64,000 bases of DNA. Source: Escherichia phage SDYTW1-F1-2-2_3. Where the stretch lies: the sequence record OR296290.1. One strand, 5' to 3'. Below, one piece after another: positions 5,579-51,143 of this stretch. Each line of letters starts with the position of its first letter. The first letter of the stretch is position 1. A program made the translations under genes and the position numbers. Below the pieces are notes generated by a model, which was given only the letters and a program-made list of their open reading frames with translations, was not told where the DNA came from and searched no databases.

Positions 5579-6133
5579 TTACATTTTCCAATATAATGAA
5601 GGTGGGTCGTAAGGGTCAAATCCTGTGAGTTCACACAAGTATTTATAAACCTTAACGGTTAAGTTAACGTCCTGTTCACAATAAGTAAACATATCTTCAG
5701 TGAAAGCATCCCATGCTTCCTCTTGCTCACCGTAATCACCTTTAAGTTCCTCTAAGAACTCACCCCATTGCTTCAAGCCATGACCTCTTGGGCCATGTCT
5801 AGGGTCACCTTTCGGGTACTCAGGACTGTCACCAATACGGTCAGGTTTAAGATATCGACTAAGACATAGAGTGTCGAAGACGTTAAAATGATATTTAATC
5901 AGATTGGGATACATCTTCTTCAGAGCACAAAGGTCGAAGTCAATAATATTATGACCTACTAGCACATCAGCTTCTGTAAGTTTACGAATCCCATCTTCAA
6001 TTTGGTGAGGCCGATAGCCCCACCTTTCACCAGTTTCAACATCGAAGATGTAAATACACCACACTTTAGTTATGTCATCGTACAGTGCATTACTCTCGAT
6101 ATCAAATGCAAACACTTTCTTTTTCTTTACCAC
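5579..6133 (-). CDS. DEDDy-type 3'-5' exonuclease
   Basis: GTG start; Exo I FDIES, Exo II HNIIDFD, Exo III YCEQD motifs. Confidence 0.7.
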
Positions 6134-7917
6134 GGTGAAGCTCCATCTGCTTGATTGACGAGAGAAGCTGCATCCTCTCCGTTAGTCAAAACGAATGGAT
6201 TATCTTCATCAACTTCAAAGTCTTCCCTTTCTACAAGTCTACCGGTTTCGCTGATATACTTAGTATAGCAGACACCCGTCTGACCGTAGTTACGTTCTTT
6301 CAGTAACCGAATGACTGAGAGGTTCTTAGCTAAGCCGTCAGCTTGCTTGTCACGCTCAAAGCCAATGATACACTGACACCAACGCATAAGGGAACGAGAG
6401 CCAGTGAACTGCACTTCACGTACCTGTCCACCTTCTTCATGAGGGGCACCACCTGCCGGAGCATTAAGGTGAGATAGCACGAAAGCGGTAAAGTCTAACT
6501 CTTTACACATACCAGCAAGCTCAGAAGCAATCTTACTGATTTCAGTGTTAATCTCTGAAGGTGTTAAATGAGACACCAGAGCGGTAATGTTATCAAGGAT
6601 GATAAACTTACACTGGTTTTCAACTACCCAGAAACGGATACACTGTTTAATGTCTTCCCATTCGTTCTGCCCAAAGTTGTCATATAAGAAGAATTTATCT
6701 GCATAACGAAGTGCTTCATTACGCAAATCCTCCTCGTCATATTCAACATCGGGTCGGTGGAAAGGAATTGATGCTGACTTACCAGCGATGTTCTTAACAG
6801 ACATGCCTACCTTCTCTTCCAAGAAGAAGCCACCCCCATTAAAACCATGCTCTAAGCACAGATGAGCAACCAGCTCGTGAGCAATTAGTGTTTTACCACT
6901 ACCTACACCACCACCGATTGCTACCACCTCTCCCCATCGAATACCGAAGGTCATCTCGTTCAGAGTTTTCCACGGATATGGGATACCCCACTCCGCTTTC
7001 TTCAGAGCATCATCAAGGCAATCGAAGATTGTTACAGCGCCAGCAGGAGATTCTCGCTTTGCTGAATACTTAAGGATATTGAATAACTCTTGACCACGAC
7101 CAGACAGAAGCATGTCATTCGCATCCTTAATTTCTTTCTCCACACCGTTGTATGGGAAAGTTCCTTTAGGGATACGAGCAAACTTGACATGAGGGAATAA
7201 AGAACGACCTTTTGTTAAAGCTATCTCACCTGCATCGTCGTTGTCCATGCAGAGCACAACCTCCTCAAAACCATTTACGAAGTCTCGATTACGAGACAAC
7301 ACAGAAGAGATTGAACCTGCACCGAACGGTAAAGAAACACATGCTGGTTTAATGTTTGTTGCATTTGTAAAAGCTGTAAGGACATGGAAACCAGACATAC
7401 AAGATAGCGGGTCTTCAAAAATGAATAGCTTCTTGTTGTACACATCTCCACGCTGAGCCTGTGCCATACCAAATAAATCTGCTTCTTTCACACTGCCAAC
7501 GTAATAGAACTTCTTACTGTCAAGCAGCTTAACCTCATAACCGACAATGTTTCCATCACGTTCACGAGGAAAGAAGTAGCTGTCTGGAGTCTGACCATCA
7601 GTCTGACTTAGACCAATGCGACACTCAAAACGCTCTGATACGGCTTTAGGTATTAAACGTCGAGTAAGTTCACCCTGAGGAAGTTCTAAGCAATCATCTA
7701 AGACTTCTCTTAACTCTTCAGGGGATAACTCTTTCTTCTCGTTTGGAGTAGGTGTAGTGCCCTTTTCGAACACTTCGTAATTCCCACAACGGTTACAACT
7801 TCCCCACTCCTCACCTGTCTCTTCGTTACGGAAGAGAATCATGTGGTTGTGGGTTTTATCACGACCATGAGAGATACATTCCTTACAACCTGTGTCTCCC
7901 AAAATGATCTTTGACAT
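6127..7917 (-). CDS. primase-helicase (T7 gp4-like)
   Basis: N-terminal Cys4 zinc ribbon (CKEC...CNRCG), central primase region, C-terminal DnaB-type helicase with Walker [10 protein letters not shown]. Confidence 0.85.
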
Positions 7918-7943
7918 GCTCTTCCTCCTTGGAATCCTTGAGC

Positions 7944-8147
7944 TTAGTAGAACGAACGAATTTCATCCCACACTTGTTCCTGTTCTTTCCTATAAAAAGA
8001 AAGTTGGGTCTTGAACATCTCCACTGATGATTCAAAGTTTTTAGATTGTGCAGCTTCAACGAAACGTTCATGTCGGTTGATTTTGCACCGTAGCATTAAA
8101 TACTTGGCTTCAAGTCTCCGAAGAGCCTGTCTTTTCTCAAGATTCAC
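7944..8147 (-). CDS. hypothetical protein (67 aa)
   Basis: Track ORF in gap between helicase and GGCT genes. Confidence 0.4.
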   Translation of the reverse strand: MNLEKRQALRRLEAKYLMLRCKINRHERFVEAAQSKNFESSVEMFKTQLSFYRKEQEQVWDEIRSFY

Positions 8148-8556
8148 TTTTCAGATACTCTGACCAGTCGCCAGATTCAACCAGAACGTCTTGTTCTTCG
8201 TCAATGTGATAAATCCAAGCGATAACAGTTTCACCTGAGTCCAGCTTAACGGCAATCTGGGTGCGTTGATAGAAGCTGTCTTCAGGGCTACGTTTGTTGT
8301 AACCTTCCAGTCGGTCATATGGGCCTTCCAGACCTGCTTTGTCAGTAGCAAACACTTCTACACGAACAGGCTTATTGTTATTGCTGTGTGCAAGAGAGAT
8401 GCTTGGGAAGTAGGAACCACCATAACGGAACAGATCAAAGTTGTCTTCAGTCCAACCTTCACCAATTGACTTAGCACCAGCTCGGTCATTAACTAGATAA
8501 TTAGCTTGACCACGACGAAGAGAACCATAAGTTGCTACGTAAATTACTTCTGACAT
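8137..8556 (-). CDS. gamma-glutamyl cyclotransferase (AIG2/GGCT-like)
   Basis: VATYGSLRRGQANY N-terminal motif plus downstream EG...Y pattern typical of the GGCT fold. Confidence 0.6.
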   Translation of the reverse strand: MSEVIYVATYGSLRRGQANYLVNDRAGAKSIGEGWTEDNFDLFRYGGSYFPSISLAHSNNNKPVRVEVFATDKAGLEGPYDRLEGYNKRSPEDSFYQRTQIAVKLDSGETVIAWIYHIDEEQDVLVESGDWSEYLKSES

Positions 8557-38638: not shown

Positions 38639-39700
38639 ATGGCTAATCCAACTTTATTTGTATCGTATGACCAGAATGGTAAAAAACTTTCTTTTGCTAA
38701 CTGGATTTCTGTTCTGTCCCCTCAGGATACTCCGTTCGTATCTATGACCGGTAAAGAGTCTATCAACCAGACTATCTTTAGCTGGCAGACCGATGCACTG
38801 GCAAGCGTTGATGGTAATAACGCACACGTCGAAGGCTCTCGTGCTGAAGACGGCGAAATGAAACCGACTGTTATCAAGTCTAACGTTACTCAGATTCTGC
38901 GTAAGGTTGTTCGTGTTTCTGACACTGCTAACACCACCGCTAACTACGGTCGTGGTCGTGAACTGATGTATCAGCTGGAGAAGAAAGGTAAAGAGATCAA
39001 GCGTGACCTCGAGAAAATCCTTCTGTCCGGTCAGGCTCGTACCGACGTTTTGGCTGACCAGTATCTGACTAACTCCGCAGCCGATCCGACTCAGATTGGT
39101 AAGAACGACACCCATGCAGCTCGTAAGACTGGTGCATTCCAGTTCCTGTGTGCTCACGGCGGTCTGACTGGTGGCGTTGTTGACAAAACCAAGAATGGTC
39201 CTGCTGACCCAGATACCGGTGCTGTAACTGTTAAAGTTGCACAGAACGCTTCTAACCCGGCTACTAACATCGGCTTCGATGAAGCAGATATCTTTGATAT
39301 GACTCTGCAACTGTACACCGCTGGTTCTGAAGCAGATATCATCATGATTAACCCGGCTCATGCTAAGATCTTCGCTGGCCTGCAAGAAAATACTCAGGGT
39401 TCACGTAAGCGTATCTTTGAGAACACCAAGCAGTTCATCTACGAAGTTAACAGCATCACTGACCCGCTGGGCCAGAGCTACAAAATCATCGTTAACCGTT
39501 GGATGCCTACTGATGCAGTTTACTTCTTCCGTAGCGCTGACTGGACCCAGATGGTTCTGCGTGCTCCGAAACGTACTGAACTGGCAAAAGATGGTTCTTA
39601 CGAGAAGTGGATGATTGAGATGGAAGTTGGTCTGCGTCACCGCAACCCGTATGCTTCCGGTGTTCTGTTCACTGCTGCGGGAAAGGCAGTAGCGGCGTAA
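38639..39700 (+). CDS. major capsid protein
   Basis: 353 aa after scaffold, strong GGAG SD, codon usage typical of a highly expressed gene; terminator after the downstream Ig ORF. Confidence 0.7.
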   Translation: MANPTLFVSYDQNGKKLSFANWISVLSPQDTPFVSMTGKESINQTIFSWQTDALASVDGNNAHVEGSRAEDGEMKPTVIKSNVTQILRKVVRVSDTANTTANYGRGRELMYQLEKKGKEIKRDLEKILLSGQARTDVLADQYLTNSAADPTQIGKNDTHAARKTGAFQFLCAHGGLTGGVVDKTKNGPADPDTGAVTVKVAQNASNPATNIGFDEADIFDMTLQLYTAGSEADIIMINPAHAKIFAGLQENTQGSRKRIFENTKQFIYEVNSITDPLGQSYKIIVNRWMPTDAVYFFRSADWTQMVLRAPKRTELAKDGSYEKWMIEMEVGLRHRNPYASGVLFTAAGKAVAA

Positions 39701-40227
39701 CAGTAGATACCATAACTGTTAGTCCTTCGTCGGTTGCAAGCCTTCCGACGGGGGCTACTCAGCAGTTTACAGCTACAGCACAAATGAGTGATAGCTCCAC
39801 ATCAACAACTGGATTTGTTTGGTCCGTTGAGGGTGGTGGGGCTATTTCTGTTTCTGGACTGTACACTGCACCGAGTGCGTCGCAAGAAACCCCGATTACA
39901 GTGAAAGCTACTAAAGGTGGTAAATCCGGTACATCTACGATCTCAGCTATTGCTGACCCTGAACCTACCCTTGTTAGCCGAGGTCCGATTTCAGGGAAGG
40001 TGGGTGGATCAACAACCGCATTCTCTACTATGTTTACAGCAACAAACTCTACCGGAAGTGACTATACTTTTGAGGTAACTCCTCCGGAAGCGGGAACTGT
40101 TAGTGCAGCTGGTCTTTTGACTCTTGCTGATACTGCTATGGGTGCAGTCTCTGTTGCAGCTACACACGAGACTAAACCTCTTGTAACAGCCACTTGTGAA
40201 TTCACAGGTGTAACACCTGCTGCTTAA
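39679..40227 (+). CDS. -1 frame Ig-like (Big_2) extension of capsid protein, reached by putative programmed frameshift
   Basis: Slippery heptamer G_GGA_AAG at 39679-39685; -1 frame open from there to 40227 and encodes VTVDTITVSPSSVASLPTGATQQFTATAQ... Ig-like repeats. Confidence 0.55.
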   Translation, partial: GKGSSGVTVDTITVSPSSVASLPTGATQQFTATAQMSDSSTSTTGFVWSVEGGGAISVSGLYTAPSASQETPITVKATKGGKSGTSTISAIADPEPTLVSRGPISGKVGGSTTAFSTMFTATNSTGSDYTFEVTPPEAGTVSAAGLLTLADTAMGAVSVAATHETKPLVTATCEFTGVTPAA

Positions 40228-40234
40228 AATTAGA

Positions 40235-40259
40235 CCCTGCCTTCGGGCGGGGTTTTTTT
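40235..40259 (+). terminator. intrinsic terminator after capsid/Ig ORF
   Basis: CCCTGCCttcgGGCGGGG then TTTTTTT. Confidence 0.7.
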
Positions 40260-40329: not shown

Positions 40330-41082
40330 ATGGCGATGCCTGAAGTGCAAAACCCGACTAACACGTATGGCTGGCTTAAGAAAGCTGTTGCCTTGTGGGC
40401 CGATCGAGACGATGATGAATTTGTTAATCAAATTCCAAACTTTATTAACTTTGCAGAGAAAGAGATTTATCGTAACTTACGTATCCCTCCTCTGGAAAAA
40501 GAAGTGTATTTAGATATTAAAGATGGAGTAGCTTATATTCCTCCTGATTACTTAGAAGCTCAATGGATGATGAGAGCCAAAGACGGAACAATCTTCCAAG
40601 TAACATCTCCTGAGGAGATTAGCTATCGTAGACAGCATGGAACAATTAACCCATCTCACTGGAACAACCAACCTGTTAACTTTGCTCGTTTCGGTAGTCG
40701 TTTCATTTTCTACCCTAGAATCGAAGCAGACACTCCTGTTTACCCTGATGATGGAAGTCCTTTGATTCCAGCAGAAAACTCAGTAATTCTTAGCTATTAT
40801 GCAGATCCACCGGAATTTCATGAAGATGAAGATACTAGTGCAATCCTCACTATCGCACCAGAGCTTCTTCTGTATTTTACTCTACGTCATGCTTGCTTGT
40901 TTGTTCAAGATGATAACGGAGTTCAGAAATGGTCAGCATTAGGAAAAGCTATCCTTGATGAAATGGTAGAGCAGAATAAGAAGCAAGAGTACTCAGGTTC
41001 ACCTATCGCAATTCCGAATAACATGACTCGACTTCAGAGCAGCTTGCCTGATATTTATGGTATTCGTACTTCTCGTGTATAA
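40330..41082 (+). CDS. virion structural protein (putative)
   Basis: 250 aa, AAGGAGG SD, preceded by TAATGTATA motif and terminator. Confidence 0.5.
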   Translation: MAMPEVQNPTNTYGWLKKAVALWADRDDDEFVNQIPNFINFAEKEIYRNLRIPPLEKEVYLDIKDGVAYIPPDYLEAQWMMRAKDGTIFQVTSPEEISYRRQHGTINPSHWNNQPVNFARFGSRFIFYPRIEADTPVYPDDGSPLIPAENSVILSYYADPPEFHEDEDTSAILTIAPELLLYFTLRHACLFVQDDNGVQKWSALGKAILDEMVEQNKKQEYSGSPIAIPNNMTRLQSSLPDIYGIRTSRV

Positions 41083-41091
41083 GGAGATAAT

Positions 41092-44000
41092 ATGATCGTT
41101 TATAATAACCAAGCACCTGATGCAGTGAATAACGTTGGGCAGTTTGGTGCTACAGAAGGCTCTATCGGAGCTTACAAGCAAGCAGCAGAATATGCAGCTG
41201 ATTCTAAGTATTGGGCATTACTGGCTGAGTCTAAGTTTGGCACAATCGATGATCTGATTGCTGAAGTAGAACGTCTATATCAACAGGGTGTTCTGATGCA
41301 GCAAGACATTGAGGCTTTGAAGCAGGATTTTAGAGACCAAGATGCTCATTTAATGCAACTTATCGCTCAGACTAACGCAGCTGTTTCTGATGCACAGAAC
41401 GCTCTGGCTCTTATGGACCAGAAGCTGATTGAAGTTCAGGAACGACTGGATATTCTGTTAGGTATGTCTGTTGACGTCACTACACTTCCTCCGGGAAATG
41501 AAGCTTCTGGGCATTTTGACCCTAACACTGGTGTTATCTCTTTGGGTATCCCTCAAGGTGTTCCGGGTAAAGATGGTACAGTAACAGATTTGAATAACGC
41601 ACCAACCGGTGTTCCTGTTCTTGGTGATGTAGGTTTCTATGTTGATAAAGATGACAACACTGTTCACAAAACGTCTTTAGAGAATATTGCAAACCTTATC
41701 CCATCTGTTCGTTCTATCTCTGTAAACGGCGGTCCTGCTGAGAGTGGTGAAGTTGCTCTAACTCTTGACAAAAGTACTGTTGGGTTAAGTAATGTAGAGA
41801 ACGTGGCTTCTTATAGTAAAGAGGTTGTTGATAACAAAGTTGATGGTTTTATTAAAACATACAGCTCTAAAGCTGAAGCGGATGCAGATGCTGTTAATCG
41901 TGAGGCTGGAGAAACTGTTTTAGTGTGGGAAAACACTCAGTATGTTTTCTACAAAGTGGCTGCTGATAAGATTCTAGATTTAAGTAAAACAGAACCTCGG
42001 GTTATTACTGTCAACTCTCGTATTCCTGACTCTAGCGGTAACATTGATATTACAATCCCTACAGGGAACCCATCCTTGTATCTAGGTGAATTATTGATGT
42101 TCCCTTATGACCCATCTCGCCCTATTTCTTATCCTGGGATTTTACCTGCTGACGGTCGTTTGGTGTCCAAGGATTTGGCTAGCGATTTAGGTGCTTCTTT
42201 AGTTAGTGGTCAGCTTCCGGTTGTGTCTGAGACAGAATGGCAAGCAGGTGCTAAGCAGTATTATTCTTGGGGTAAACTGGCTGATGGGCTGACTGATGCA
42301 GACTCTACCAACTACATCAACATCCGTCTTCCTGATTGGACTGGTGGTGAAGCTATTAGATCTCCTAACCTAACTGGCGATGCTTCTTATGACGGTAAGC
42401 CATTAGATCAGAAACCTTACATCGTTACTGTTAACGGAATTGCTCCTAACGATATCACAGGAAACGTCAACATAACAGCTGCAAATATAGGCGCTTTGGC
42501 TAAGTCTGGTGGTATCATGGACGGAAACTTAGTCCTTAACAAAGCTGTATCTTTACGCAGAATAAAGGATAATGACACTCAAGTTAACATGGTATCGAGA
42601 AGTGACTCTGATGCTTCTGTACTTGGTGACCACTTAGCTAAGACTGTAATAGCTTCTTCCGAGACACCAATCTTCTCTAAACCGGAAGGGGATTATAAGT
42701 TTTATACAGAGGATAACAAACCTACGAACGTTGATGTTGGTGCTGCTGGTATTGATGTTAATGGTGTAAACTCTGACATAAAAACTTTCACTCAAAAGGT
42801 TACGTTCCAGCAACCTGTTACTGTGGCAGATGCTGTTGGAGACTATGATGCTGTTACCTTACGTCAACTAAGAAACCAAGGTGGTGGAGGTGGCGGTTCT
42901 ACGATGAATGGTATCTCCAACTTCAATATTGGTGATTTCCGACTAGTAGATAGTCGAGCTTTTATCCAAGCAAATGATGTTGTGTCTGATGGTCAACTTT
43001 TGAACAGGGCCGAGTATCCTGAGCTTTGGGCGTATGCTCAGATGCTCACCCCTATAGAGGATTCTGAGTGGATTTCAACCCCTTCCAAGAGATCTCAATA
43101 TTCACTAGGAGATGGCTCTACTACATTCCGTGTCCCTGATAGGAATGGTGTTCAGAGTGGCTCTGTTAAGGCTTTATATGGAAGAGGTGACGGTGGAGGT
43201 TCTTACGGAGGTATTTATGATAGTGGGATTCCTGACATAACTGGTCAGTTCAGAGCTTATGGATACAATGCAGGTGAACCTACAGGTGCATTTGGTTCCT
43301 ATAATAGTGGTAGCGCTGAGTTTGAATTAAAATCTACATCTGCTAATTTTACTAGGTACAACACATTCACCATAAGTGCCGGAAGGGTTAACTCTGTTTA
43401 TGGAAGAGCAGACGAGGTCAGGCCTAGATCTTTCGTCGGTGTATGGGTGATTCGTGCTAAAGGGGCTTTCATCGCTGCCAATACAACATGGTCAGTAATT
43501 AATAGTGACACCTCTCGTCCTTCTGACGGAACCACTGTGACTGGTGGTAATGTAATATCTGAATATAAAGTAGGGGCAGAATCTGAAGGTTCAGCCGAGT
43601 TCCGAATGGTTGGAACGATTGGAAGCTCTTATTCTGCTAGAATTGGTGTTTACAACAAAACATCAAGTAAAGGAACTACTTTTGATTTTACTGAGGCCGG
43701 TAATATAGAGACTCCCAAAGGTCGTGTTTTGGTGAAAGGGGATTACGGTGTTGGTGCTCAGGGAAGTGTTGTATTACCTGAAACTAACTATAACCAGCTC
43801 ATAACAGATTCAGATGGTGCCTCATCGTGGGCAGCTGCTAATGGAGGGGGTATACAAACTTCCTATGCCGTAAATAGAATCTGTCAATTTTGGGTAAGTC
43901 TGAGTGGTTCGGCTTATATCAGATCTAATACACTGAACAACAACCCAAAAGAACTCAAATCCAATCTTCCGTGGACAACTCTCCAGAATGCTGGAACCTC

Positions 44001-44292
44001 TGACGCAAATGTCAAGGATATTGGAGATGATTTAGATTTAAATGTCGCTCTAAGTAATATTAAATCTCTTGAATTTAAAAACTTTACTTACAAGAACGAT
44101 GAGAAGAAATCACCACGTAGAGGGGTAATTGCGCAACAAGCAGAACAGGTGGACCCTCAGTATGTCCATAGTGCAGAAAAAAGTGGAGTCATGACTCTTG
44201 ACACTAACCCGCTTTTATTAGATGCCCTTGCTGCTATCAAGCTTTTGTCTGCTAAAGTAGAAGAGTTGGAAAAGCAGTTAGCTGCTAAATGA
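41092..44292 (+). CDS. tail fibre/spike protein with collar domain and C-terminal intramolecular chaperone (S74-like)
   Basis: 1066 aa; YPELWAYAQ...GDGSTTFRVPDRNG collar block; C-terminal DIGDDLDLNVALSNIKSLEFKNFTYKNDE...VMTLDTNPLL chaperone-like end. Confidence 0.7.
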   Translation: MIVYNNQAPDAVNNVGQFGATEGSIGAYKQAAEYAADSKYWALLAESKFGTIDDLIAEVERLYQQGVLMQQDIEALKQDFRDQDAHLMQLIAQTNAAVSDAQNALALMDQKLIEVQERLDILLGMSVDVTTLPPGNEASGHFDPNTGVISLGIPQGVPGKDGTVTDLNNAPTGVPVLGDVGFYVDKDDNTVHKTSLENIANLIPSVRSISVNGGPAESGEVALTLDKSTVGLSNVENVASYSKEVVDNKVDGFIKTYSSKAEADADAVNREAGETVLVWENTQYVFYKVAADKILDLSKTEPRVITVNSRIPDSSGNIDITIPTGNPSLYLGELLMFPYDPSRPISYPGILPADGRLVSKDLASDLGASLVSGQLPVVSETEWQAGAKQYYSWGKLADGLTDADSTNYINIRLPDWTGGEAIRSPNLTGDASYDGKPLDQKPYIVTVNGIAPNDITGNVNITAANIGALAKSGGIMDGNLVLNKAVSLRRIKDNDTQVNMVSRSDSDASVLGDHLAKTVIASSETPIFSKPEGDYKFYTEDNKPTNVDVGAAGIDVNGVNSDIKTFTQKVTFQQPVTVADAVGDYDAVTLRQLRNQGGGGGGSTMNGISNFNIGDFRLVDSRAFIQANDVVSDGQLLNRAEYPELWAYAQMLTPIEDSEWISTPSKRSQYSLGDGSTTFRVPDRNGVQSGSVKALYGRGDGGGSYGGIYDSGIPDITGQFRAYGYNAGEPTGAFGSYNSGSAEFELKSTSANFTRYNTFTISAGRVNSVYGRADEVRPRSFVGVWVIRAKGAFIAANTTWSVINSDTSRPSDGTTVTGGNVISEYKVGAESEGSAEFRMVGTIGSSYSARIGVYNKTSSKGTTFDFTEAGNIETPKGRVLVKGDYGVGAQGSVVLPETNYNQLITDSDGASSWAAANGGGIQTSYAVNRICQFWVSLSGSAYIRSNTLNNNPKELKSNLPWTTLQNAGTSDANVKDIGDDLDLNVALSNIKSLEFKNFTYKNDEKKSPRRGVIAQQAEQVDPQYVHSAEKSGVMTLDTNPLLLDALAAIKLLSAKVEELEKQLAAK

Positions 44293-44300
44293 TTAACAAC

Positions 44301-44320
44301 GCTCCCTTCGGGGAGCTTTT
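44301..44320 (+). terminator. hairpin/weak terminator after first tail fibre gene
   Basis: GCTCCCttcgGGGAGC then TTTT; SD of next gene follows. Confidence 0.45.
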
Positions 44321-44331
44321 AGGAGGATTTA

Positions 44332-46485
44332 ATGTCTAGAGAATTAATGCCCAAATCCGGTATAATGATGCCTCATGTAGTAATCAACAGAGATGCTGCG
44401 GTAGTTGGTGTCTCTACTGTAGATGGAGTTGCTGGTGCAGTTGATCTTACTGGTAAGTACCTACAGAAAACAGATGCGGCAGATACCTATCAAACAAAAA
44501 CTGAAGGTGCTTCTAAGACTTATGTTTTAGATTCTATTCAACCTATCATGGAAGGTGCTTTGTTTAAAGCTGACCCTTTCGTAGATAACAATATCCCTTT
44601 CCGTTCTGCTGGTGCTAATGGTGTAGAATCCATAGATATGATTAAGGTCACTCCAGAGAACTCTATTAAACTTGGAAGTTACGAGTCTTCTGTTCAAGGA
44701 GTAGAGATTCACTCTGCTGGTCGTGTTGTGGTTGTTGATAAGAACGACTCTGGTGTGGAAACCAAGTATCCTGTTTACTCCAAACGCTTCCGTCCTGAGA
44801 TTGAAGATTTACCATTTGCAGCCATAGGCTCTTATGTTAAAGACTCCAAAGGCCGCACGATCGGTGTGAACCGTACAGGTATTAACTCTGATATTAAACA
44901 GTTTACTCAGAAAGTCACCTTCCAGCAGCCTGTAACAATCGCAGATGGTGTGGGTGATTATGATGCTGTAACAATGAGGCAGTTACGTAACAGTGGTGGT
45001 GGTTCTGGTGGTCCTACAATGAGCGGTATCTCTAACTTCGGTATTGGTGATTTCCACTTACGAGATAGTCGCGCTTTTATTCCAGCTTTTGAGGTTACAT
45101 CAGATGGGCAGCTTCTTAATCGTGCTGACTATCCTGATTTATGGGCTTATGCTCAATTATTGACTCCTATTCCTGACTCTCAATGGCTAGGAGATGTTAG
45201 GGAACGTGGTAAATATTCAGTGGGTGATGGTTCTACTACTTTCCGAGTTCCTGACCGAAATGGTGTCCAAGCTGACTCTATTAAAGCATTATTTGCTAGA
45301 GGTGATGCTGGTGTTTCATCTATAAATGGAACAATACAACAAGCTCACGTACCTAATATTTCTGCCAAAATGGACCTCCATGCAGGTGGTTCAGCCAACA
45401 TAATAAGTGGGGCCATTGGAGCTTTTGTAGGCGGTGGTGGCTCAACAACGACTTATAGAACCCCTGGTACGTTAACAGTAAACTCCGGTGCAAGCTCTTT
45501 TGGCACAATGACTTTAGATGCTAGTAAATCTAGCTCTGTGTATGGTTCTATTCCTTCCAACACGGATGAAGTCTTACCTCGTAACTTTACAGGTGTCTGG
45601 ACTATTCGTGCCCATGGTGGGTTTGTAGCTGCTAATACCTCTTGGGCTGTTATTAATAGTGATGCGTCTGCCACACCCGGCGCTTATGTATCTGGCGGGC
45701 AGGTTATATCTAAATATCAGGTTAACGGTGTAGACCGCGCCATTGCCCGCATGAGCGCTGATTGGCGGGTTGGGGATGCCTACCAATCAACAATCCATTT
45801 TTATAATAACTCAACCAATAGCGGCGGAACTGCGATCACTGATTCTCACTACTATTTGAGTGGACCATCTGGACAGATTCTAACTGATTCAAAAACAGGG
45901 ATAGGTGATGCGGGGGGCATGTTTGCGACACCGAATGCAAACGACTTTACTACTAACGGTATTTATGCAGGTGCTGGGGCTAATGGGGTTAACTGGGGGG
46001 ACGCGTATTCGGCACTGCTGCACATGTCTCGCTATAATGCCTCCTCGCAGCGCGCTCAGCTTCAGATCAGTCCCACAGGTTTGTTGAAGGTTCGTGGTGC
46101 CTCCCCTACAACTTGGTCCGACTGGTTCACAATGCAGGCGCAGGGAACTTCTGGACGTGACTTTAAGCGCGACATAACCCCAGCAGACCCGAAAGAAGCA
46201 TTTGACCGGATTGCTTCACAAGATCTTGTCACGTTTATCTATAAGGATGACGAACAGGAGCGCGTTCGTTTCGGTATTATCGCGGAGGATGCGGAGAAGA
46301 TTGCGCCGCAATACATCAAGCACGGCGAGGAGACGGTAGAGGTTGATGGTGAGGTGATCACTCGTGATCATCCGAGAGTCGACGTTAACCCTATTGTCAT
46401 GGATTTAATTGGCGCTGTTCACTATCTCCGTGATGAAGTTGATCAGCTAAAAGCAGAACTGGCTGAGTTGAAAGATAGTAAATAA
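44332..46485 (+). CDS. second tail fibre protein (paralogous collar block + S74-like chaperone)
   Basis: 717 aa; shares about 180 aa block with 41092-44292; C-terminal FIYKDDEQERVRFGIIAEDAEKIAPQYI... Confidence 0.7.
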   Translation: MSRELMPKSGIMMPHVVINRDAAVVGVSTVDGVAGAVDLTGKYLQKTDAADTYQTKTEGASKTYVLDSIQPIMEGALFKADPFVDNNIPFRSAGANGVESIDMIKVTPENSIKLGSYESSVQGVEIHSAGRVVVVDKNDSGVETKYPVYSKRFRPEIEDLPFAAIGSYVKDSKGRTIGVNRTGINSDIKQFTQKVTFQQPVTIADGVGDYDAVTMRQLRNSGGGSGGPTMSGISNFGIGDFHLRDSRAFIPAFEVTSDGQLLNRADYPDLWAYAQLLTPIPDSQWLGDVRERGKYSVGDGSTTFRVPDRNGVQADSIKALFARGDAGVSSINGTIQQAHVPNISAKMDLHAGGSANIISGAIGAFVGGGGSTTTYRTPGTLTVNSGASSFGTMTLDASKSSSVYGSIPSNTDEVLPRNFTGVWTIRAHGGFVAANTSWAVINSDASATPGAYVSGGQVISKYQVNGVDRAIARMSADWRVGDAYQSTIHFYNNSTNSGGTAITDSHYYLSGPSGQILTDSKTGIGDAGGMFATPNANDFTTNGIYAGAGANGVNWGDAYSALLHMSRYNASSQRAQLQISPTGLLKVRGASPTTWSDWFTMQAQGTSGRDFKRDITPADPKEAFDRIASQDLVTFIYKDDEQERVRFGIIAEDAEKIAPQYIKHGEETVEVDGEVITRDHPRVDVNPIVMDLIGAVHYLRDEVDQLKAELAELKDSK

Positions 46486-46578: not shown

Positions 46579-46797
46579 ATGAAAATGATGAAACAAGCTG
46601 TTTACGGTTTAGTCTGTTTAGGTGCAGGGGTTGTGGTTTCTACAGCAGTTCCTGTTAACGCAGTACATCCATTAGTCACAGCACCAGCTCCTGTTGAGAA
46701 ACTTAGTTCTCAATGCAAGCAGCGAACTATTCAAAATAACTTGGTTGTTATTTGTCCTGATGCTGAATCTAACGCCCTGAGAAAGATACTACCTTAA
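46579..46797 (+). CDS. small membrane/secreted protein next to endolysin (possible holin/spanin-type lysis accessory)
   Basis: 72 aa, single N-terminal hydrophobic segment; position immediately upstream of lysozyme. Confidence 0.35.
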   Translation: MKMMKQAVYGLVCLGAGVVVSTAVPVNAVHPLVTAPAPVEKLSSQCKQRTIQNNLVVICPDAESNALRKILP

Positions 46798-46826
46798 TTT
46801 AAAGGGATCACAAAAGGAGGTTAGAA

Positions 46827-47318
46827 ATGGATAACGTCGCATTGCCACCTGTACAGTTAAACTTAAGCCCAGCTGGAATGGAATTCATCATGAAGCATGA
46901 GGGTATGAGAACCAAGGCTTATAAAGATTCCGCAGGTATCTGGACAATATGTGTAGGGGCTACGCGCGATATGAATGGTTATCCGGTTAGGCAAGGATTA
47001 ACATATTCTATAGAGGATTGTCTAGCTCTGCTAGATAGAGACACACAAGACTCTGTTCGTGCTACTCAGAAAAACATAAAGGTTCCTTTGCTCGTTCATG
47101 AGTTCGATGCACTCACCTCTTTCAACTTCAACGTTGGTAGTGGGGCACTGAGCACATCTAAGTTAAGGAAGGTTATCAATGGAGATGTCAAAGGTGATGT
47201 ATACTCAGAGTTTCTTCGTTGGGATAAAATTACGGTGAAGGGAGAGAAGCAGAGGAGTCAGGGTCTTCATAACAGAAGGGTTGCAGAAGCTGATCTTTAT
47301 ACCGAAGGTAAATATTAA
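46827..47318 (+). CDS. endolysin, GH24 lysozyme (T4 lysozyme-like)
   Basis: MEFIMKHEGMRTKAYKDSAGIWTICVGAT matches the E...D...T catalytic N-terminus of T4-type lysozymes. Confidence 0.8.
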   Translation: MDNVALPPVQLNLSPAGMEFIMKHEGMRTKAYKDSAGIWTICVGATRDMNGYPVRQGLTYSIEDCLALLDRDTQDSVRATQKNIKVPLLVHEFDALTSFNFNVGSGALSTSKLRKVINGDVKGDVYSEFLRWDKITVKGEKQRSQGLHNRRVAEADLYTEGKY

Positions 47319-47330
47319 TGGAGGTGCCTT

Positions 47331-48134
47331 TTGGCTATCGAAAATAATGCGGTAGTAGTTACCGACTTGAATCCACTCTATCCTCGTGATAGGGATTATA
47401 TCTACGAAGGGGCGGCTCAAATCCGCCTCATCAAACAAACACTACAAAACACATTCCCCAATATCACTGAACCAGTTAATGTTGATTCTGATACTTTTAA
47501 GATTATATCAGAGAAGCTCAAGTTTACTGGTGATTCAATGGATGTTGGTGGGCTTATGATTAAGAACGCTACTCCGGGAACTGGTGATAAAGATGTTGTC
47601 ACTAAGGGTCAGATGGAAGCATTCATGAAGAATTGGATGGAGAATAAACTTTATCGTATTGGTTCTTATTACATCACTGAGGAAGATATTAATCCGGGTG
47701 ATTCTATCTCTCTTGGGTTTGGTTCTTGGGCTAAGGTTACTGGTGTTATCATGGGTACTGGTGTAGTTAACCCTGATGGTTCGGTTCCTAATGCTCAGCG
47801 TGTTGAATTCCAAGCAGGTGGTACAGGTGGTCGTGTATTTAATACCATTCGCACTGAGAACGTACCTCTTATGACGATTGACGGTTCTAGTTTTAAAGTT
47901 TCAAGTAACACCCACTCACATAACATGGTCTTTGGTCGTGGAGATGCAAGTGGACACAACAGCTCTCCAAACTGGTATAACCCAGGAACTGGATACAGTA
48001 AGAGAACTGAAGCAGACACTCACACTCACACCATTTCTGGTTCTGTTAGTTTTGGTCGTGATGACATCTCACGTCAACCTATTAACACTTTGCCACCATT
48101 CAGAGCGGCTCACATTTGGAGACGTATTAGCTAA
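47331..48134 (+). CDS. virion/tail protein (putative), TTG start
   Basis: 267 aa; GGAGGTG SD just upstream of TTG 47331. Confidence 0.45.
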   Translation: MAIENNAVVVTDLNPLYPRDRDYIYEGAAQIRLIKQTLQNTFPNITEPVNVDSDTFKIISEKLKFTGDSMDVGGLMIKNATPGTGDKDVVTKGQMEAFMKNWMENKLYRIGSYYITEEDINPGDSISLGFGSWAKVTGVIMGTGVVNPDGSVPNAQRVEFQAGGTGGRVFNTIRTENVPLMTIDGSSFKVSSNTHSHNMVFGRGDASGHNSSPNWYNPGTGYSKRTEADTHTHTISGSVSFGRDDISRQPINTLPPFRAAHIWRRIS

Positions 48135-48143
48135 GGAGGAATT

Positions 48144-51143
48144 ATGGCGCTGTATCCAATCAAGTCTTTAGGTGCTATAGGCGTAATTGCTGATCAGGCT
48201 CCAACGGACTTAGCTCCTAATGCTTTCACTAATGCTATAAACGCTCGCTTTGTTGAGCAGAGGGTTTTTAAGACGGGGGGCAATGCCCCTCTTTCTTACG
48301 TAGATGAAGATAAAGATTTAACACCTCTGTCTTTTGTATCTATGCCTTTTGACTACTATAGCGCAGGCAATAGCTTTCTTGTTGTGGGAACCGATAAGAA
48401 GTTATATAAGCTGACAGATGAAAGCTTGACTGATATAAGCCGTAAGGTTGCTACAGTCACTAAGAGGGCTTCTGCCTCTATTAAGATTTATCCAGTTGTT
48501 TCTAGAATTATTCCTAAAGAGACTGCAATCTCTATGAACTTTAACCAGACTAAAGCTCTCGAAGTTTCTGTTCTTCCAGAGGATGCTAACAATGCTGAAC
48601 TGGTCTGGAGTTTAAGTAATTCTTCTTATGGTCAGATAACAGTAGACCCGACAGATTCTAAGAAAGCTTCTCTAAAATCTCTGAGTAAGGAAGGTAATCT
48701 AGTTGTTACCGTGAAGACTAAAGATGAGACAGTATCTGCTCAGATTGCTGTTAATATCATTGATGGTGATTCAGGTATCTTCTTAAGCCAAGACACGGTG
48801 ACTGTCCGTAAAGGAAGCAATACTACGATTACAGCTGTTACTGGAAAAACTCCTGTGAGCTGGTCTACTAACAACGGAGCTATTGTATCAGTTGTTCCTA
48901 ACACAAATACCCTAACTGCTGTTATCACAGCTAACGGCACAGGAACTGCAACCATTACAGCAGACAATGGAACGAAGACTGCTACTTGTACTGTTAACGC
49001 AATACCTCAGATTGATAGTGTTTCTTTAAGTCAGACTGATGTTACTGTTAACAGAGGTACTCAGTATATTCTCACAGCTACAGTATCTCCAGCTAATGCT
49101 CCTAATAAGAACATTACTTGGACCTCCTCTAATCCAAACATTGCTACAGTATCTGGCACAGGAACAGAAGCTACCATCACTGCAATTACAGCTGGGTTTA
49201 CAGAGATTACTGCTACTACTCAAGAAGGTAATAGAACTGCTGTTTGTACTGTCCGTGTTGAGCTTGCTGGTAGAATGTTAAGATCTTCCTTTATGGCAAC
49301 AGCAGAACCAGAACCAGTTTCTGAAGAAGTTGTAGTTCCTGAATCAGAGGATGTTGTTTATTTTGCAGCACCTACATCTGGAATAGACACAACAGGGATG
49401 GCTGAAGGTAATAGCTTCTACGACTACTCTAACGTAAACGATATGGAAGGTTTTGCAAGAGCTTCTCTCTTTGCCACTCCTCTTGATTCTGTAACATTAG
49501 ATGTTGTCAGTGCTTCTCTTGATGTTGGAGAAGAGATTGTTATTACAGCTACTGCTTCCCCTGAAGGAGAGTATTCATACCTTTGGTCTGTAGATAAAAC
49601 TGGTTATGTTTCTACAACATCTGTAACAGGGAAAACACTTAAACTTACCGCTCTTCGTAAAGGTGAGATTAATGTAACTTGTACAGTAAGCCAGATGACT
49701 CAGAGAGACTATGATGCATTTGATGATTATCCTTGGTATCATGCAGTAATCTCCAACTGTGCAGTAGCAACCACTCATTATGAAACACCTCAGGTTAAAG
49801 AGTTTGAATCTGAATATTTTGTAGATCTTCCGGGATGGGGTGAACAGACAGTAGTGGATAATGATGGGAACCCTTCGGTTAAGAAATTCAACTGGAAGTG
49901 TGAGAGAGTAAGATCTTTCAACAACAGATTGTTTGCTCTGAATATGAGGGAGTCTAATGCATCTGGTGTTACCACTAACTACCCGCTTCGTCTTCGTTGG
50001 TCTAACTTTGCCAATGAGAACAAAGCTCCTACGTTATGGGATGACTTCGCTTATGATCGAGTTGTGTCTTCGGACCTAGCTTCTAATATCGTAGGTCAGA
50101 CTCAGGCGCTAGAGAATGGCTACGCTGGTTACATAGACTTGGCTGACTCTAACGGTAGCTTGATTGATATTCTTCCTCTTAAAGATTACTTGTTCGTTTA
50201 TACAGAGTTTGAAACGTACATTGGTTCTCCAACTAATAACACGTACCAGCCTCTTATGTTCAAGAAACTCTTTAACGATTCCGGTATCCTTGCCCCTGAG
50301 TGTGTAGTAGAAGTTGAAGGTAGTCATTTCGTAGTCACTCAGAACGACGTGATCTTACACAATGGTGCAACTAAGAAGTCAATCGCTTCTAACCGTGTTA
50401 AGAATATGCTGATTAATGAGATATGTCTGGTTAACCCTTTAGCAACTCGGGTGCATTTGCATCAGGACAAGAAAGAAGTTTGGGTTCTCTATGTAGGTCC
50501 GGGAGAGCCGAAAGAAAGCTTCGCTTGTACTAAAGCTGCTGTATGGAACTACGAGTTTGATACTTGGTCTTTCCGTACTATCCCATATGCTCAATGTATT
50601 GGTCTGGTTGATCCTCCTGTTCTTGAGAGAGGTCCAATCTGGGCTGACTTCCAAGAGATCACCTGGGATGACCCTTCAATCAAAGAGCTTGTTTGGAGAA
50701 AAGATGCAACTAACTTCCGTCAGAGGGTTACTATAGTAGGTTCGTTCTTACGAGGTTTCTATCAAGTGGATGTTGGTGCTTTGGATTACTTCTATGATAG
50801 GCTTAATGATAAGGTTATAGAAAAACCACTGGAGATGAGGTTAGAGAGAACTGGTATGGATTTTGATAACATCACTAACGAATGGAATCAGAAACATATC
50901 AACAGGTTCAGACCTCAGACGACAGGTTCCGGTACGTATACTTTTGAAGCAGGTGGTAGTCAATTCTCTAACGAGTATGGTCATCCACACACATCTAAGA
51001 CGTATACGATTGGTGTTGATAGGCATGTCTCGGTGAGACTGAACCATCCATACCTTTTCTATAATGTTATAGATAATGATGTTAACAGTAATGCTGCTAT
51101 CAATGGGTTAACGATAGAGTTTGCTGTTGGCGGGCGGAGATAA
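48144..51143 (+). CDS. large structural protein with Big_2 Ig-like domains
   Basis: 999 aa; at least two Big_2-like repeats (about aa 215-285 and 295-370); terminator after stop. Confidence 0.55.
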   Translation: MALYPIKSLGAIGVIADQAPTDLAPNAFTNAINARFVEQRVFKTGGNAPLSYVDEDKDLTPLSFVSMPFDYYSAGNSFLVVGTDKKLYKLTDESLTDISRKVATVTKRASASIKIYPVVSRIIPKETAISMNFNQTKALEVSVLPEDANNAELVWSLSNSSYGQITVDPTDSKKASLKSLSKEGNLVVTVKTKDETVSAQIAVNIIDGDSGIFLSQDTVTVRKGSNTTITAVTGKTPVSWSTNNGAIVSVVPNTNTLTAVITANGTGTATITADNGTKTATCTVNAIPQIDSVSLSQTDVTVNRGTQYILTATVSPANAPNKNITWTSSNPNIATVSGTGTEATITAITAGFTEITATTQEGNRTAVCTVRVELAGRMLRSSFMATAEPEPVSEEVVVPESEDVVYFAAPTSGIDTTGMAEGNSFYDYSNVNDMEGFARASLFATPLDSVTLDVVSASLDVGEEIVITATASPEGEYSYLWSVDKTGYVSTTSVTGKTLKLTALRKGEINVTCTVSQMTQRDYDAFDDYPWYHAVISNCAVATTHYETPQVKEFESEYFVDLPGWGEQTVVDNDGNPSVKKFNWKCERVRSFNNRLFALNMRESNASGVTTNYPLRLRWSNFANENKAPTLWDDFAYDRVVSSDLASNIVGQTQALENGYAGYIDLADSNGSLIDILPLKDYLFVYTEFETYIGSPTNNTYQPLMFKKLFNDSGILAPECVVEVEGSHFVVTQNDVILHNGATKKSIASNRVKNMLINEICLVNPLATRVHLHQDKKEVWVLYVGPGEPKESFACTKAAVWNYEFDTWSFRTIPYAQCIGLVDPPVLERGPIWADFQEITWDDPSIKELVWRKDATNFRQRVTIVGSFLRGFYQVDVGALDYFYDRLNDKVIEKPLEMRLERTGMDFDNITNEWNQKHINRFRPQTTGSGTYTFEAGGSQFSNEYGHPHTSKTYTIGVDRHVSVRLNHPYLFYNVIDNDVNSNAAINGLTIEFAVGGRR

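Follow-up and report, generated by a model that had tools for sequence, protein, structure and literature searches.

The long tail fibres of the Kuravirus podophages SU10 and phiEco32 and of the T5-like siphovirus DT57C are the closest described counterparts of the two genes treated here, which lie side by side in a 64,000-nucleotide (nt) stretch of DNA from Escherichia phage SDYTW1-F1-2-2_3 (sequence record OR296290.1; this whole stretch is referred to as the window). In SU10, the tail adaptor gp11 is a dodecamer that bears six long fibres, and cryo-electron microscopy (cryo-EM) places residues 1-90 of the fibre protein gp12 on that adaptor (PMC9509320). A branched fibre of phiEco32 gp14 and gp15 has been reported from unpublished cryo-EM (PMC4728585), and branching has been proposed both for this pair and for LtfA/LtfB of DT57C (PMC4728585, PMC8217332). 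Residues 223-471 of LtfA resemble residues 239-508 of phiEco32 gp14, the first 45 residues of LtfB resemble gp15, and a contact region has been proposed; LtfB function genetically requires LtfA (PMC4728585). LtfB density was not seen on the DT57C tail core (PMC10713586). Orthologous fibres modelled with AlphaFold-Multimer have been termed 'T-shaped' and consist of a Gp12-like receptor-binding domain (RBD1), a T5-like one (RBD2) and a chaperone, set on a proximal fibre (PMC11990801).

The two genes of the window are the long-tail-fibre genes of an E. coli Kuravirus, that is, an SU10/phiEco32-like podophage. Their products, here called P1 and P2, are the counterparts of gp14/gp15 and LtfA/LtfB. 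A preliminary description, made from the letters alone, had called two adjacent tail-fibre genes of 1066 and 717 amino acids (aa), and both open reading frames (ORFs) are present, separated by a spacer of 39 nt.

41092..44292, + strand: P1, proposed stem (proximal) long-tail-fibre protein, 1066 aa; matches SU10 gp12 and DT57C LtfA, 87% identity to LAMP gp14
44332..46485, + strand: P2, proposed branch (distal) long-tail-fibre protein, 717 aa; orthologue of SU10 gp13, phiEco32 gp15, EP335 gp13 and LtfB

Our favoured reading, to which we give a probability of about 0.68, is that two proteins build the long tail fibre, which is most likely branched (Y-shaped) and has two receptor-binding arms that process themselves. 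A P1 trimer would form the stem, its first ~90 residues fixed to the dodecameric tail adaptor as homology to the SU10 structure suggests. A P2 trimer would form the branch, its ~45-residue N-terminal peptide docking on P1 aa ~213-474, a placement suggested by the co-occurrence of the two segments and by the genetics of DT57C LtfA/LtfB. Beyond the dock, P1 would run on into its own receptor-binding half. Each arm would comprise the shared block with its collar-like motif, then a hypervariable patch, a further variable region at the tip and, at the C-terminus, an S74 chaperone; by analogy with the published models (PMC11990801) it may be 'T-shaped', with a Gp12-like RBD1 and a T5-like RBD2. The chaperone would drive trimer folding and then cut itself off. 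Both arms would bind O-antigen-type glycans without degrading them, and the phage would thereby have at least two primary receptors to choose from before its short fibres and nozzle engage.

Each described system shares part of this arrangement. In SU10 (gp12/gp13) and phiEco32 (gp14/gp15) the pair occupies the same locus between the adaptor and holin genes, P2 1-325 is conserved, and the branch protein carries S74. Their stems (786 and 880 aa) end in Phage_tail_C_2 (PF25670, E 1e-60) and have no S74, whereas P1 has instead a second branch-type receptor-binding half capped by S74. In LAMP, a Kuravirus of E. coli 4s (MG673519), gp14 and gp15 (1068 and 711 aa) show the same gene order, the same intergenic hairpin and S74 in both proteins. 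LAMP differs from the present phage in two places: P1 and gp14 diverge strongly only in the patch at aa ~700-780, and P2, nearly identical to gp15 over residues 1-325, falls to ~40% identity beyond aa ~325, where it also diverges from SU10 gp13. We found no description of the LAMP fibres in the literature searched. The LtfA/LtfB pairs of DT57C and DT571/2 (PMC4728585; PDB 8hqz) likewise have S74 in both proteins, paralogous distal halves, adjacent genes and a spacer of ~39 nt with a UUCG hairpin. LtfA, however, carries 19-aa tandem repeats after the dock that P1 does not have. EP335 gp13 is a P2 orthologue whose distal sequence, and presumably serotype, differ; its partner gp12 has no recognisable receptor-binding domain or chaperone (PMC8217332), unlike P1. 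Among the T-shaped fibres described for Gordonclarkvirinae, Wifcevirus and some Tequintavirus, P2 is the orthologue of the Gordonclarkvirinae one. The proximal fibre of that description is a carrier (PMC11990801), whereas P1, the proximal fibre here, bears another such module at its own end.

The stem, the branch and their proposed junction

P1 looks like a mosaic in which a Kuravirus anchor and dock are joined to an LtfA-type distal arm. Residues 1-474 match SU10 gp12 (PDB 7z47_D 1-473) at E 7e-241 and are 78% identical to phiEco32 gp14 over that span. Residues 209-1064 match DT57C LtfA (PDB 8hqz_d) at E 3e-151, and P1 213-1064 is collinear with LtfA 200-1070 at 38% identity (E 3e-171). P1 has no T5 Ltf-type N-terminal anchor, the LtfA alignment beginning at residue 213 and residues 1-212 being of Kuravirus type. 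The two anchors have different partners, which for the LtfA N-terminus is the T5 LtfC collar of a siphovirus tail and for the P1 N-terminus would be the Kuravirus adaptor. P1 carries the adaptor-binding segment of SU10-type stems, and its start codon (41092) lies directly downstream of the end of the adaptor gene (41082). As judged from these alignments, the locus works like LtfA/LtfB but falls outside the T5 fibre family.

40330..41082, + strand: tail adaptor protein, SU10 gp11 orthologue; Pfam SU10_adaptor E 7e-29, 97% identity to SU10 gp11
41092..41361, + strand: P1 aa 1-90, adaptor-binding N-terminal segment by SU10 homology; near-identical to the SU10 gp12 residues built in the cryo-EM map
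41728..42513, + strand: P1 aa 213-474, dock region, proposed binding site of the P2 N-terminus; common to Kuravirus stems and T5-like LtfA
44332..44466, + strand: P2 aa 1-45, putative LtfB-type N-terminal docking peptide; 34/45 identical to DT57C LtfB

The C-terminal end of the stem varies among relatives. Pfam finds no match in P1 to the Phage_tail_C_2 (PF25670) tip of the type stems, and S74 stands in its place as it does at the end of LAMP gp14; P1 is therefore a variant stem of LAMP type. The same stem type occurs in PAS59, E20-1 and EK010. Among the records of Kuravirus size listed in a tblastn search with the last 367 residues of P1, only LAMP, PAS59, E20-1 and EK010 have the S74-capped module in both fibre genes, and the other kuraviruses listed have it once. 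We also compared P1 1-474 with a database of 5.8 billion proteins. The word prefilter of this census gave 22 proteins and missed known relatives, so that it speaks to the diversity of stem C-termini and not to their frequency. These metagenomic stem homologues (P0121-P0142, n=22) carry PF25670, PF21722, PF13385, PF03372 and PF13884 as C-terminal Pfam domains. This variety suggests free exchange of the stem's own tip as a module.

P2 is less variable at its N-terminal end. The family phrog_6921 matches it over its full length (E 9e-251), and overall identity is 53% to SU10 gp13 and 60% to LAMP gp15. All three marks of a branch fibre are present, namely the conserved N-terminal ~190 residues, the shared block and a C-terminal S74 domain. 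In tblastn, P2 1-190 is 83-97% identical across the kuraviruses listed, SU10 gp13 and phiEco32 gp15 included, and the N-terminal query also matches the N-termini of T5-like LtfB genes. Since this N-terminus is kept in SU10 and phiEco32 despite their different stem C-termini, its partner surface should lie in the conserved P1 1-474.

The distribution of the two segments points the same way. In summary counts from tblastn, 241 phage records contain the P1 dock (aa 240-470) and 235 contain the N-terminal segment of P2, with closely matched numbers by organism (dock/peptide: Escherichia 112/111, Salmonella 95/91, Shigella 5/5, Klebsiella 3/3). The records span Gordonclarkvirinae podoviruses and T5-like siphoviruses, which are two virus families, and the two matches lie ~2-2.6 kb apart in every record listed for both. 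The locus itself has an LtfA-type dock followed, in the next gene, by an LtfB-type 45-aa peptide. Because the record counts match, P1 is probably what P2 docks on, and attachment is not the role of the shared block.

We also considered a vestigial docking peptide within P1 (aa 469-485, 42496-42546, compared with P2 5-19, 44344-44388) and rejected it, the match being non-significant (E 0.09). The P1 sequence, LAKSGGIMDGNLVLN, stands right after the dock and is weakly like LMPKSGIMMPHVVIN of the P2 N-terminus; an ancient cis-fusion of a branch-type fibre is hinted at by this non-significant similarity.

Several points weigh against a branched fibre with two glycan-binding arms. The co-occurrence of dock and peptide is drawn from summary counts and the rows listed, not from a record-by-record intersection. 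The statement that the phiEco32 fibre is branched is a personal communication cited in PMC4728585. A structure of the P1-P2 junction exists for no member of this group, and receptor identity is entirely inferred. The AlphaFold monomer of P2 182-717, built from a 49-sequence alignment, is poor outside the chaperone, with a mean predicted local distance difference test score (pLDDT) of 57.7 and a predicted template-modelling score (pTM) of 0.27. An hhalign comparison of an 8-sequence profile with T4 gp12 was negative for a Gp12/collar relation (probability 0.09%). Finally, the SU10 paper names gp12 'proximal' and gp13 'distal' and describes them as parts of a single 700 A fibre with one elbow between segments of 300 A and 400 A, not as a branch (PMC9509320).

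This last description is the starting point of the main rival, a serial fibre in which P2 trimers would sit end-to-end on the distal end of P1, so that only the P2 tip of one elbowed fibre meets the receptor. The drawing of a T-shaped fibre on a 'proximal fiber' (PMC11990801) agrees with it. The gp12-gp13 joint has, however, never been seen, because the SU10 map resolved only gp12 1-90. Other evidence fits an end-to-end joint poorly. The S74 chaperone of P1 is expected to be cut off, which would leave a free tip like those of terminal receptor-binding fibres. Stem C-termini vary, with Phage_tail_C_2 in SU10 and phiEco32, S74 here and other domains in metagenomes, whereas the P2 N-terminus is kept at 83-97%. 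What T5-like LtfA and SU10-type stems have in common is their mid-region and not the C-terminal end. We consider the serial arrangement unlikely and keep the branched fibre as the better account.

Paralogous distal halves and their chaperones

Beyond their N-terminal parts, P1 and P2 are related. BLASTP aligns P1 523-1064 with P2 144-711 at 41% identity (E 6e-124), far beyond chance, and as judged from this alignment P2 aa ~144-717 has its paralogue in the distal half of P1. The best conserved part is an ungapped block, P1 557-700 and P2 182-325, in which 108/144 residues (75%) are identical and the DNA is ~72% identical. A windowed profile shows a second conserved island (P1 775-820, P2 412-456) at 60-70% identity and the C-terminal domain at 30-47%, with 20-35% in the stretches between and after the conserved islands.

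42760..43191, + strand: shared block copy 1, P1 aa 557-700; 75% identity to P2 182-325, holds the collar-like GDGSTTFRVPDRNG motif
44875..45306, + strand: shared block copy 2, P2 aa 182-325; kept in all Kuravirus gp13/gp15 orthologues compared

The preliminary description had noted a shared block of about 180 aa and proteins that differ in their distal regions, and had proposed a comparison of the two. Its quoted motifs and a 144-aa block at 75% are there, and the homology is wider than it supposed, extending at 41% over ~545 C-terminal residues. The distal regions do diverge, to 20-35% in places; given the BLASTP homology over the whole distal halves, these stretches are diverged homologues and not unrelated sequences.

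Neither a recent tandem duplication nor an active recombination hotspot of the kind found in DT57C ltfA/ltfB accounts for the pair. The DT57C genes contain long identical DNA repeats that recombine to ltfA-ltfB fusions, whereas the longest exact DNA match between the P1 and P2 genes is 14 nt. Both possibilities are ruled out by this figure and by the ~72% DNA identity of the block.

The position of the block also bears on another alternative, in which P1 and P2 would be two independent fibres on a shared tail adaptor, attached through the common block or at separate sites, like the dual tailspikes of SP6/K1-5-type phages. Adjacent fibre genes with a common block do superficially resemble dual-tailspike loci. 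BLASTP of the two proteins, however, finds no similarity between their N-termini, and the shared block lies 180-560 residues away from these, within the distal half. In SU10, moreover, gp12 N-termini fill the six adaptor sites, and gp16, the short fibre, fills the nozzle fibre site. T5-like virions lack a Kuravirus adaptor; LtfB-type proteins that share the N-terminal peptide of P2 function there and depend on LtfA. We regard independent fibres as very improbable. The earlier proposal of two receptor-binding proteins on a shared adaptor, for dual or branched recognition, thus survives as regards branching, which remains the best reading; its adaptor does not, the shared block having no such role and the N-termini being unrelated.

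That both proteins end in an S74-type intramolecular chaperone is supported by several observations. Against a gathering score of 22 bits, Pfam Peptidase_S74 (PF13884) matches P1 970-1025 with 40.3 bits (E 4e-10) and P2 608-661 with 38.0 bits (E 2.1e-9), so that the hidden Markov model search called for in the preliminary description gives an above-cutoff match at the end of each protein, where that description had placed the domain. A Ser-x4-Lys dyad is present in both (GTS970-DANV-K975 in P1, GTS607-GRDF-K612 in P2). The same S-x4-K spacing appears in alignments to 6f45 and 8jov. Ser607 and Lys612 of P2 are invariant in 49 homologues, and PF13884 matches 49/49 of the aligned homologues. The modelled P2 C-terminus (model residues 430-536, pLDDT 76-92 in the AlphaFold monomer) matches the MyRF ICA domain 7dc3 in Foldseek at E 2e-5, with a root-mean-square deviation of 2.9 A over 117 columns and a target-normalised template-modelling (TM) score of 0.64-0.68; this ICA fold assignment applies to P2 only.

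44002..44289, + strand: P1 aa 971-1066, S74 intramolecular chaperone (PF13884), predicted to be released as 10.6 kDa
46153..46482, + strand: P2 aa 608-717, S74 intramolecular chaperone (PF13884), predicted to be released as 12.6 kDa

Self-cleavage of the chaperone at the conserved serine has been demonstrated by mass spectrometry for EP335 gp13 (PMC8217332). In the present phage, cleavage is predicted after Ser970 of P1 and Ser607 of P2 and would convert P1 from 113.8 kDa to 103.3 + 10.6 kDa and P2 from 76.6 kDa to 64.0 + 12.6 kDa.

Proposed receptor-binding arms and their specificity

Compared with LAMP gp14, P1 keeps 87% identity from end to end, with the divergence concentrated in the patch at aa ~700-780, and tblastn matches to the PAS59, E20-1 and EK010 proteins begin only after it. 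This pattern fits a receptor-contacting surface under selection. In P2 the divergent distal part is aa 326-607. The earlier view of the divergent distal parts as specificity determinants is plausible.

43192..43416, + strand: P1 aa 701-775, hypervariable patch, candidate specificity determinant; 23-33% identity to P2, divergent from LAMP gp14
43552..44001, + strand: P1 aa 821-970, distal tip region ending at the predicted cleavage site Ser970; LtfA alignment, GTS970-DANVK975 motif
45307..46152, + strand: P2 aa 326-607, divergent distal receptor-binding part, ends at Ser607

Related phages and fibres depend on O-antigens. LAMP is strictly dependent on the O-antigen of E. coli 4s (PMC6393563), EP335 gp13 binds O157 and O26 cells (PMC8217332), the BASEL Gordonclarkvirinae need O16 O-antigen (PMC11990801), and DT57C LtfA and LtfB recognise different O-antigens (PMC4728585). 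Non-enzymatic O-antigen binding is therefore likely for both arms. A serotype prediction was attempted and set aside: the nearest characterised receptor-binding domains (DT57C LtfA/LtfB, PGT2 and EP335) are at <=60% identity, and no receptor is assigned.

It is conceivable, though distinctly improbable in our view, that only one arm works and that the LtfA-type half of P1, or that of P2, is a structural leftover of recombination in a phage of single specificity. A fusion of green fluorescent protein (GFP) to EP335 gp12, a stem of the other type, bound 0 tested strains (PMC8217332), and host range in the BASEL phages tracked one of two domains only (PMC11990801). Set against this, neither ORF is disrupted, and each product has an above-threshold S74 match together with the Ser-x4-Lys dyad. 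The focusing of P1 divergence on aa ~700-780 is what would be expected of a receptor-contacting surface under selection, and DT57C LtfA and LtfB each confer a distinct O-antigen specificity. Two working arms remain part of the favoured branched assembly.

The shared block had been labelled a collar in the preliminary description; membership of that family is not established. The gathering score of Pfam Collar (PF07484) is 24 bits; P1 reaches 17.6 bits and P2 17.9 bits, and only profile positions 38-54 of 57, corresponding to the GDGSTTFRVPDRNG motif, are matched. A sub-threshold Collar match at E<=0.01 occurs in 30/49 homologues, and the P1 dock region holds a first, more diverged collar-like motif, IRLPD, at aa 411. 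The LtfA chain was the sole match in a profile search of PDB sequences; the T5 pb1-like distal tip of the T-shaped fibres is a feature of trimer structure predictions alone. Foldseek matches of the P2 model other than the chaperone were noise. A Gp12-like domain is supported by HHpred and InterPro assignments published for orthologues (PMC8217332, PMC11990801). HHpred on EP335 gp13 has identified a segment like the T4 gp12 tip at residues 236-422 (PMC8217332), and the shared block and variable patch of the present fibre fall partly within the equivalent span. The shared block is plausibly part of the Gp12-like RBD1 of PMC11990801. As our P2 monomer model is poor outside the chaperone, the T-shaped dual-RBD architecture is borrowed from the published orthologue models.

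Genomic setting and exchange of the distal cassettes

The gene order of the window is that of SU10 and phiEco32. The fibre genes are preceded by capsid and adaptor genes and followed by lysis, short-fibre and nozzle genes.

38639-39700: SU10-type major capsid protein (Pfam SU10_MCP)
44301..44316, + strand: intercistronic hairpin GCUCCC-UUCG-GGGAGC in the spacer 44293-44331; fold -12.2 kcal/mol, z -2.0
46579-46797: holin-sized ORF, 72 aa, in the position of genes annotated 'putative holin' in LAMP, SU10 and phiEco32
46827-47318: lysozyme gene (Pfam Phage_lysozyme)
47331-48134: short fibre, T4 gp10_C-like (Pfam Gp10_C)
48144-51143: nozzle protein, 999 aa (Pfam Big_2)

The hairpin at 44301-44316 comes after the P1 stop codon and before the AGGAGG ribosome-binding site of P2, and is identical in LAMP, SU10 and phiEco32. 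In the ltfA-ltfB spacer of DT57C, the equivalent place is taken by another stem (GGGGC/GCCCU), with the UUCG loop kept. The hairpin may serve to stabilise the mRNA or, as an attenuator, to set the P1:P2 ratio.

DNA flanking the fibre locus on both sides is 92-94% identical to many kuraviruses, and the fibre locus itself is a mosaic for which LAMP is the best match (84.5% over 74% of the query). The phage collection gave no DNA match to the distal part of P2, and the match to other kuraviruses resumes at ~46478, at the end of P2. At the protein level, the best full-length match of the P2 distal 393 residues in deposited phages is 41-45%, with partial matches of ~54-56% over ~2/3 of the query in coliphages of ~45 kb (bob, Envy, Sloth). 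In the 5.8-billion-protein collection, the best match to P2 182-717 is 75% and comes from a Kuravirus contig whose stem is of the canonical Phage_tail_C_2 type. A 70% relative of the same segment is encoded by gene 6001-8406 of a 43.8-kb contig, ENA ERZ27269271 k141_95785 (L007). The P2-like protein serves there as a side fibre, and the neighbouring genes for lambda-J-type central tail fibres (FNIII-A_GpJ, Phage-tail_3) mark the contig as siphovirus-like. The occurrence of a P2-type distal part both in a Kuravirus with a Phage_tail_C_2 stem and in a siphovirus-like contig shows that this cassette has been exchanged horizontally, independently of stem type and between morphotypes. The distal half of P1 would be an LtfA-type cassette that replaced the Phage_tail_C_2 tip of SU10 and phiEco32, and the distal half of P2 a separately exchanged cassette.

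Some further features of the window were recorded. The holin-position ORF and the lysozyme gene (46579-47318) stand inside the tail module, with the long-fibre genes before and the short-fibre and nozzle genes after them, a conserved Kuravirus order. Between an Ig-like ORF (39784-40227) and the adaptor gene, close to the start of the latter, stands a strong terminator-like hairpin (40232-40255, 10 pairs and a T-run), and SU10 has an annotated terminator at the equivalent position. A single tRNA-Arg gene (anticodon TCT; 21745-21821, - strand) lies in the leftward-transcribed part of the window, and the sign of the GC skew flips near 31-32 kb, at the switch of transcription direction.

Taken as a whole, the locus is a known fibre design in an allele combination absent from the deposited phages searched, and it involves no new mechanism. 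We put forward more tentatively that dock, dual-RBD arm with chaperone, UUCG hairpin, docking peptide and second dual-RBD arm with chaperone could form a mobile two-gene 'branched fibre cassette'. A swap of the short family-specific N-terminal anchor would then suffice for it to pass between Gordonclarkvirinae podoviruses and T5-like siphoviruses, and each fibre could present up to four distinct glycan-binding domains (two Gp12-like, two T5-like). If so, each of the six fibres would carry more glycan-binding domains than have been described for any Kuravirus.

The locus sets host range in these therapeutically used coliphages. Host-range engineering could swap P1 aa ~701-970 and P2 aa ~326-607 as cassettes while keeping, for assembly, the P1 dock (aa 213-474), P2 aa 1-45 and both chaperones. 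Relative to its SU10-type relatives, the phage is predicted to have a broader or dual O-antigen range.

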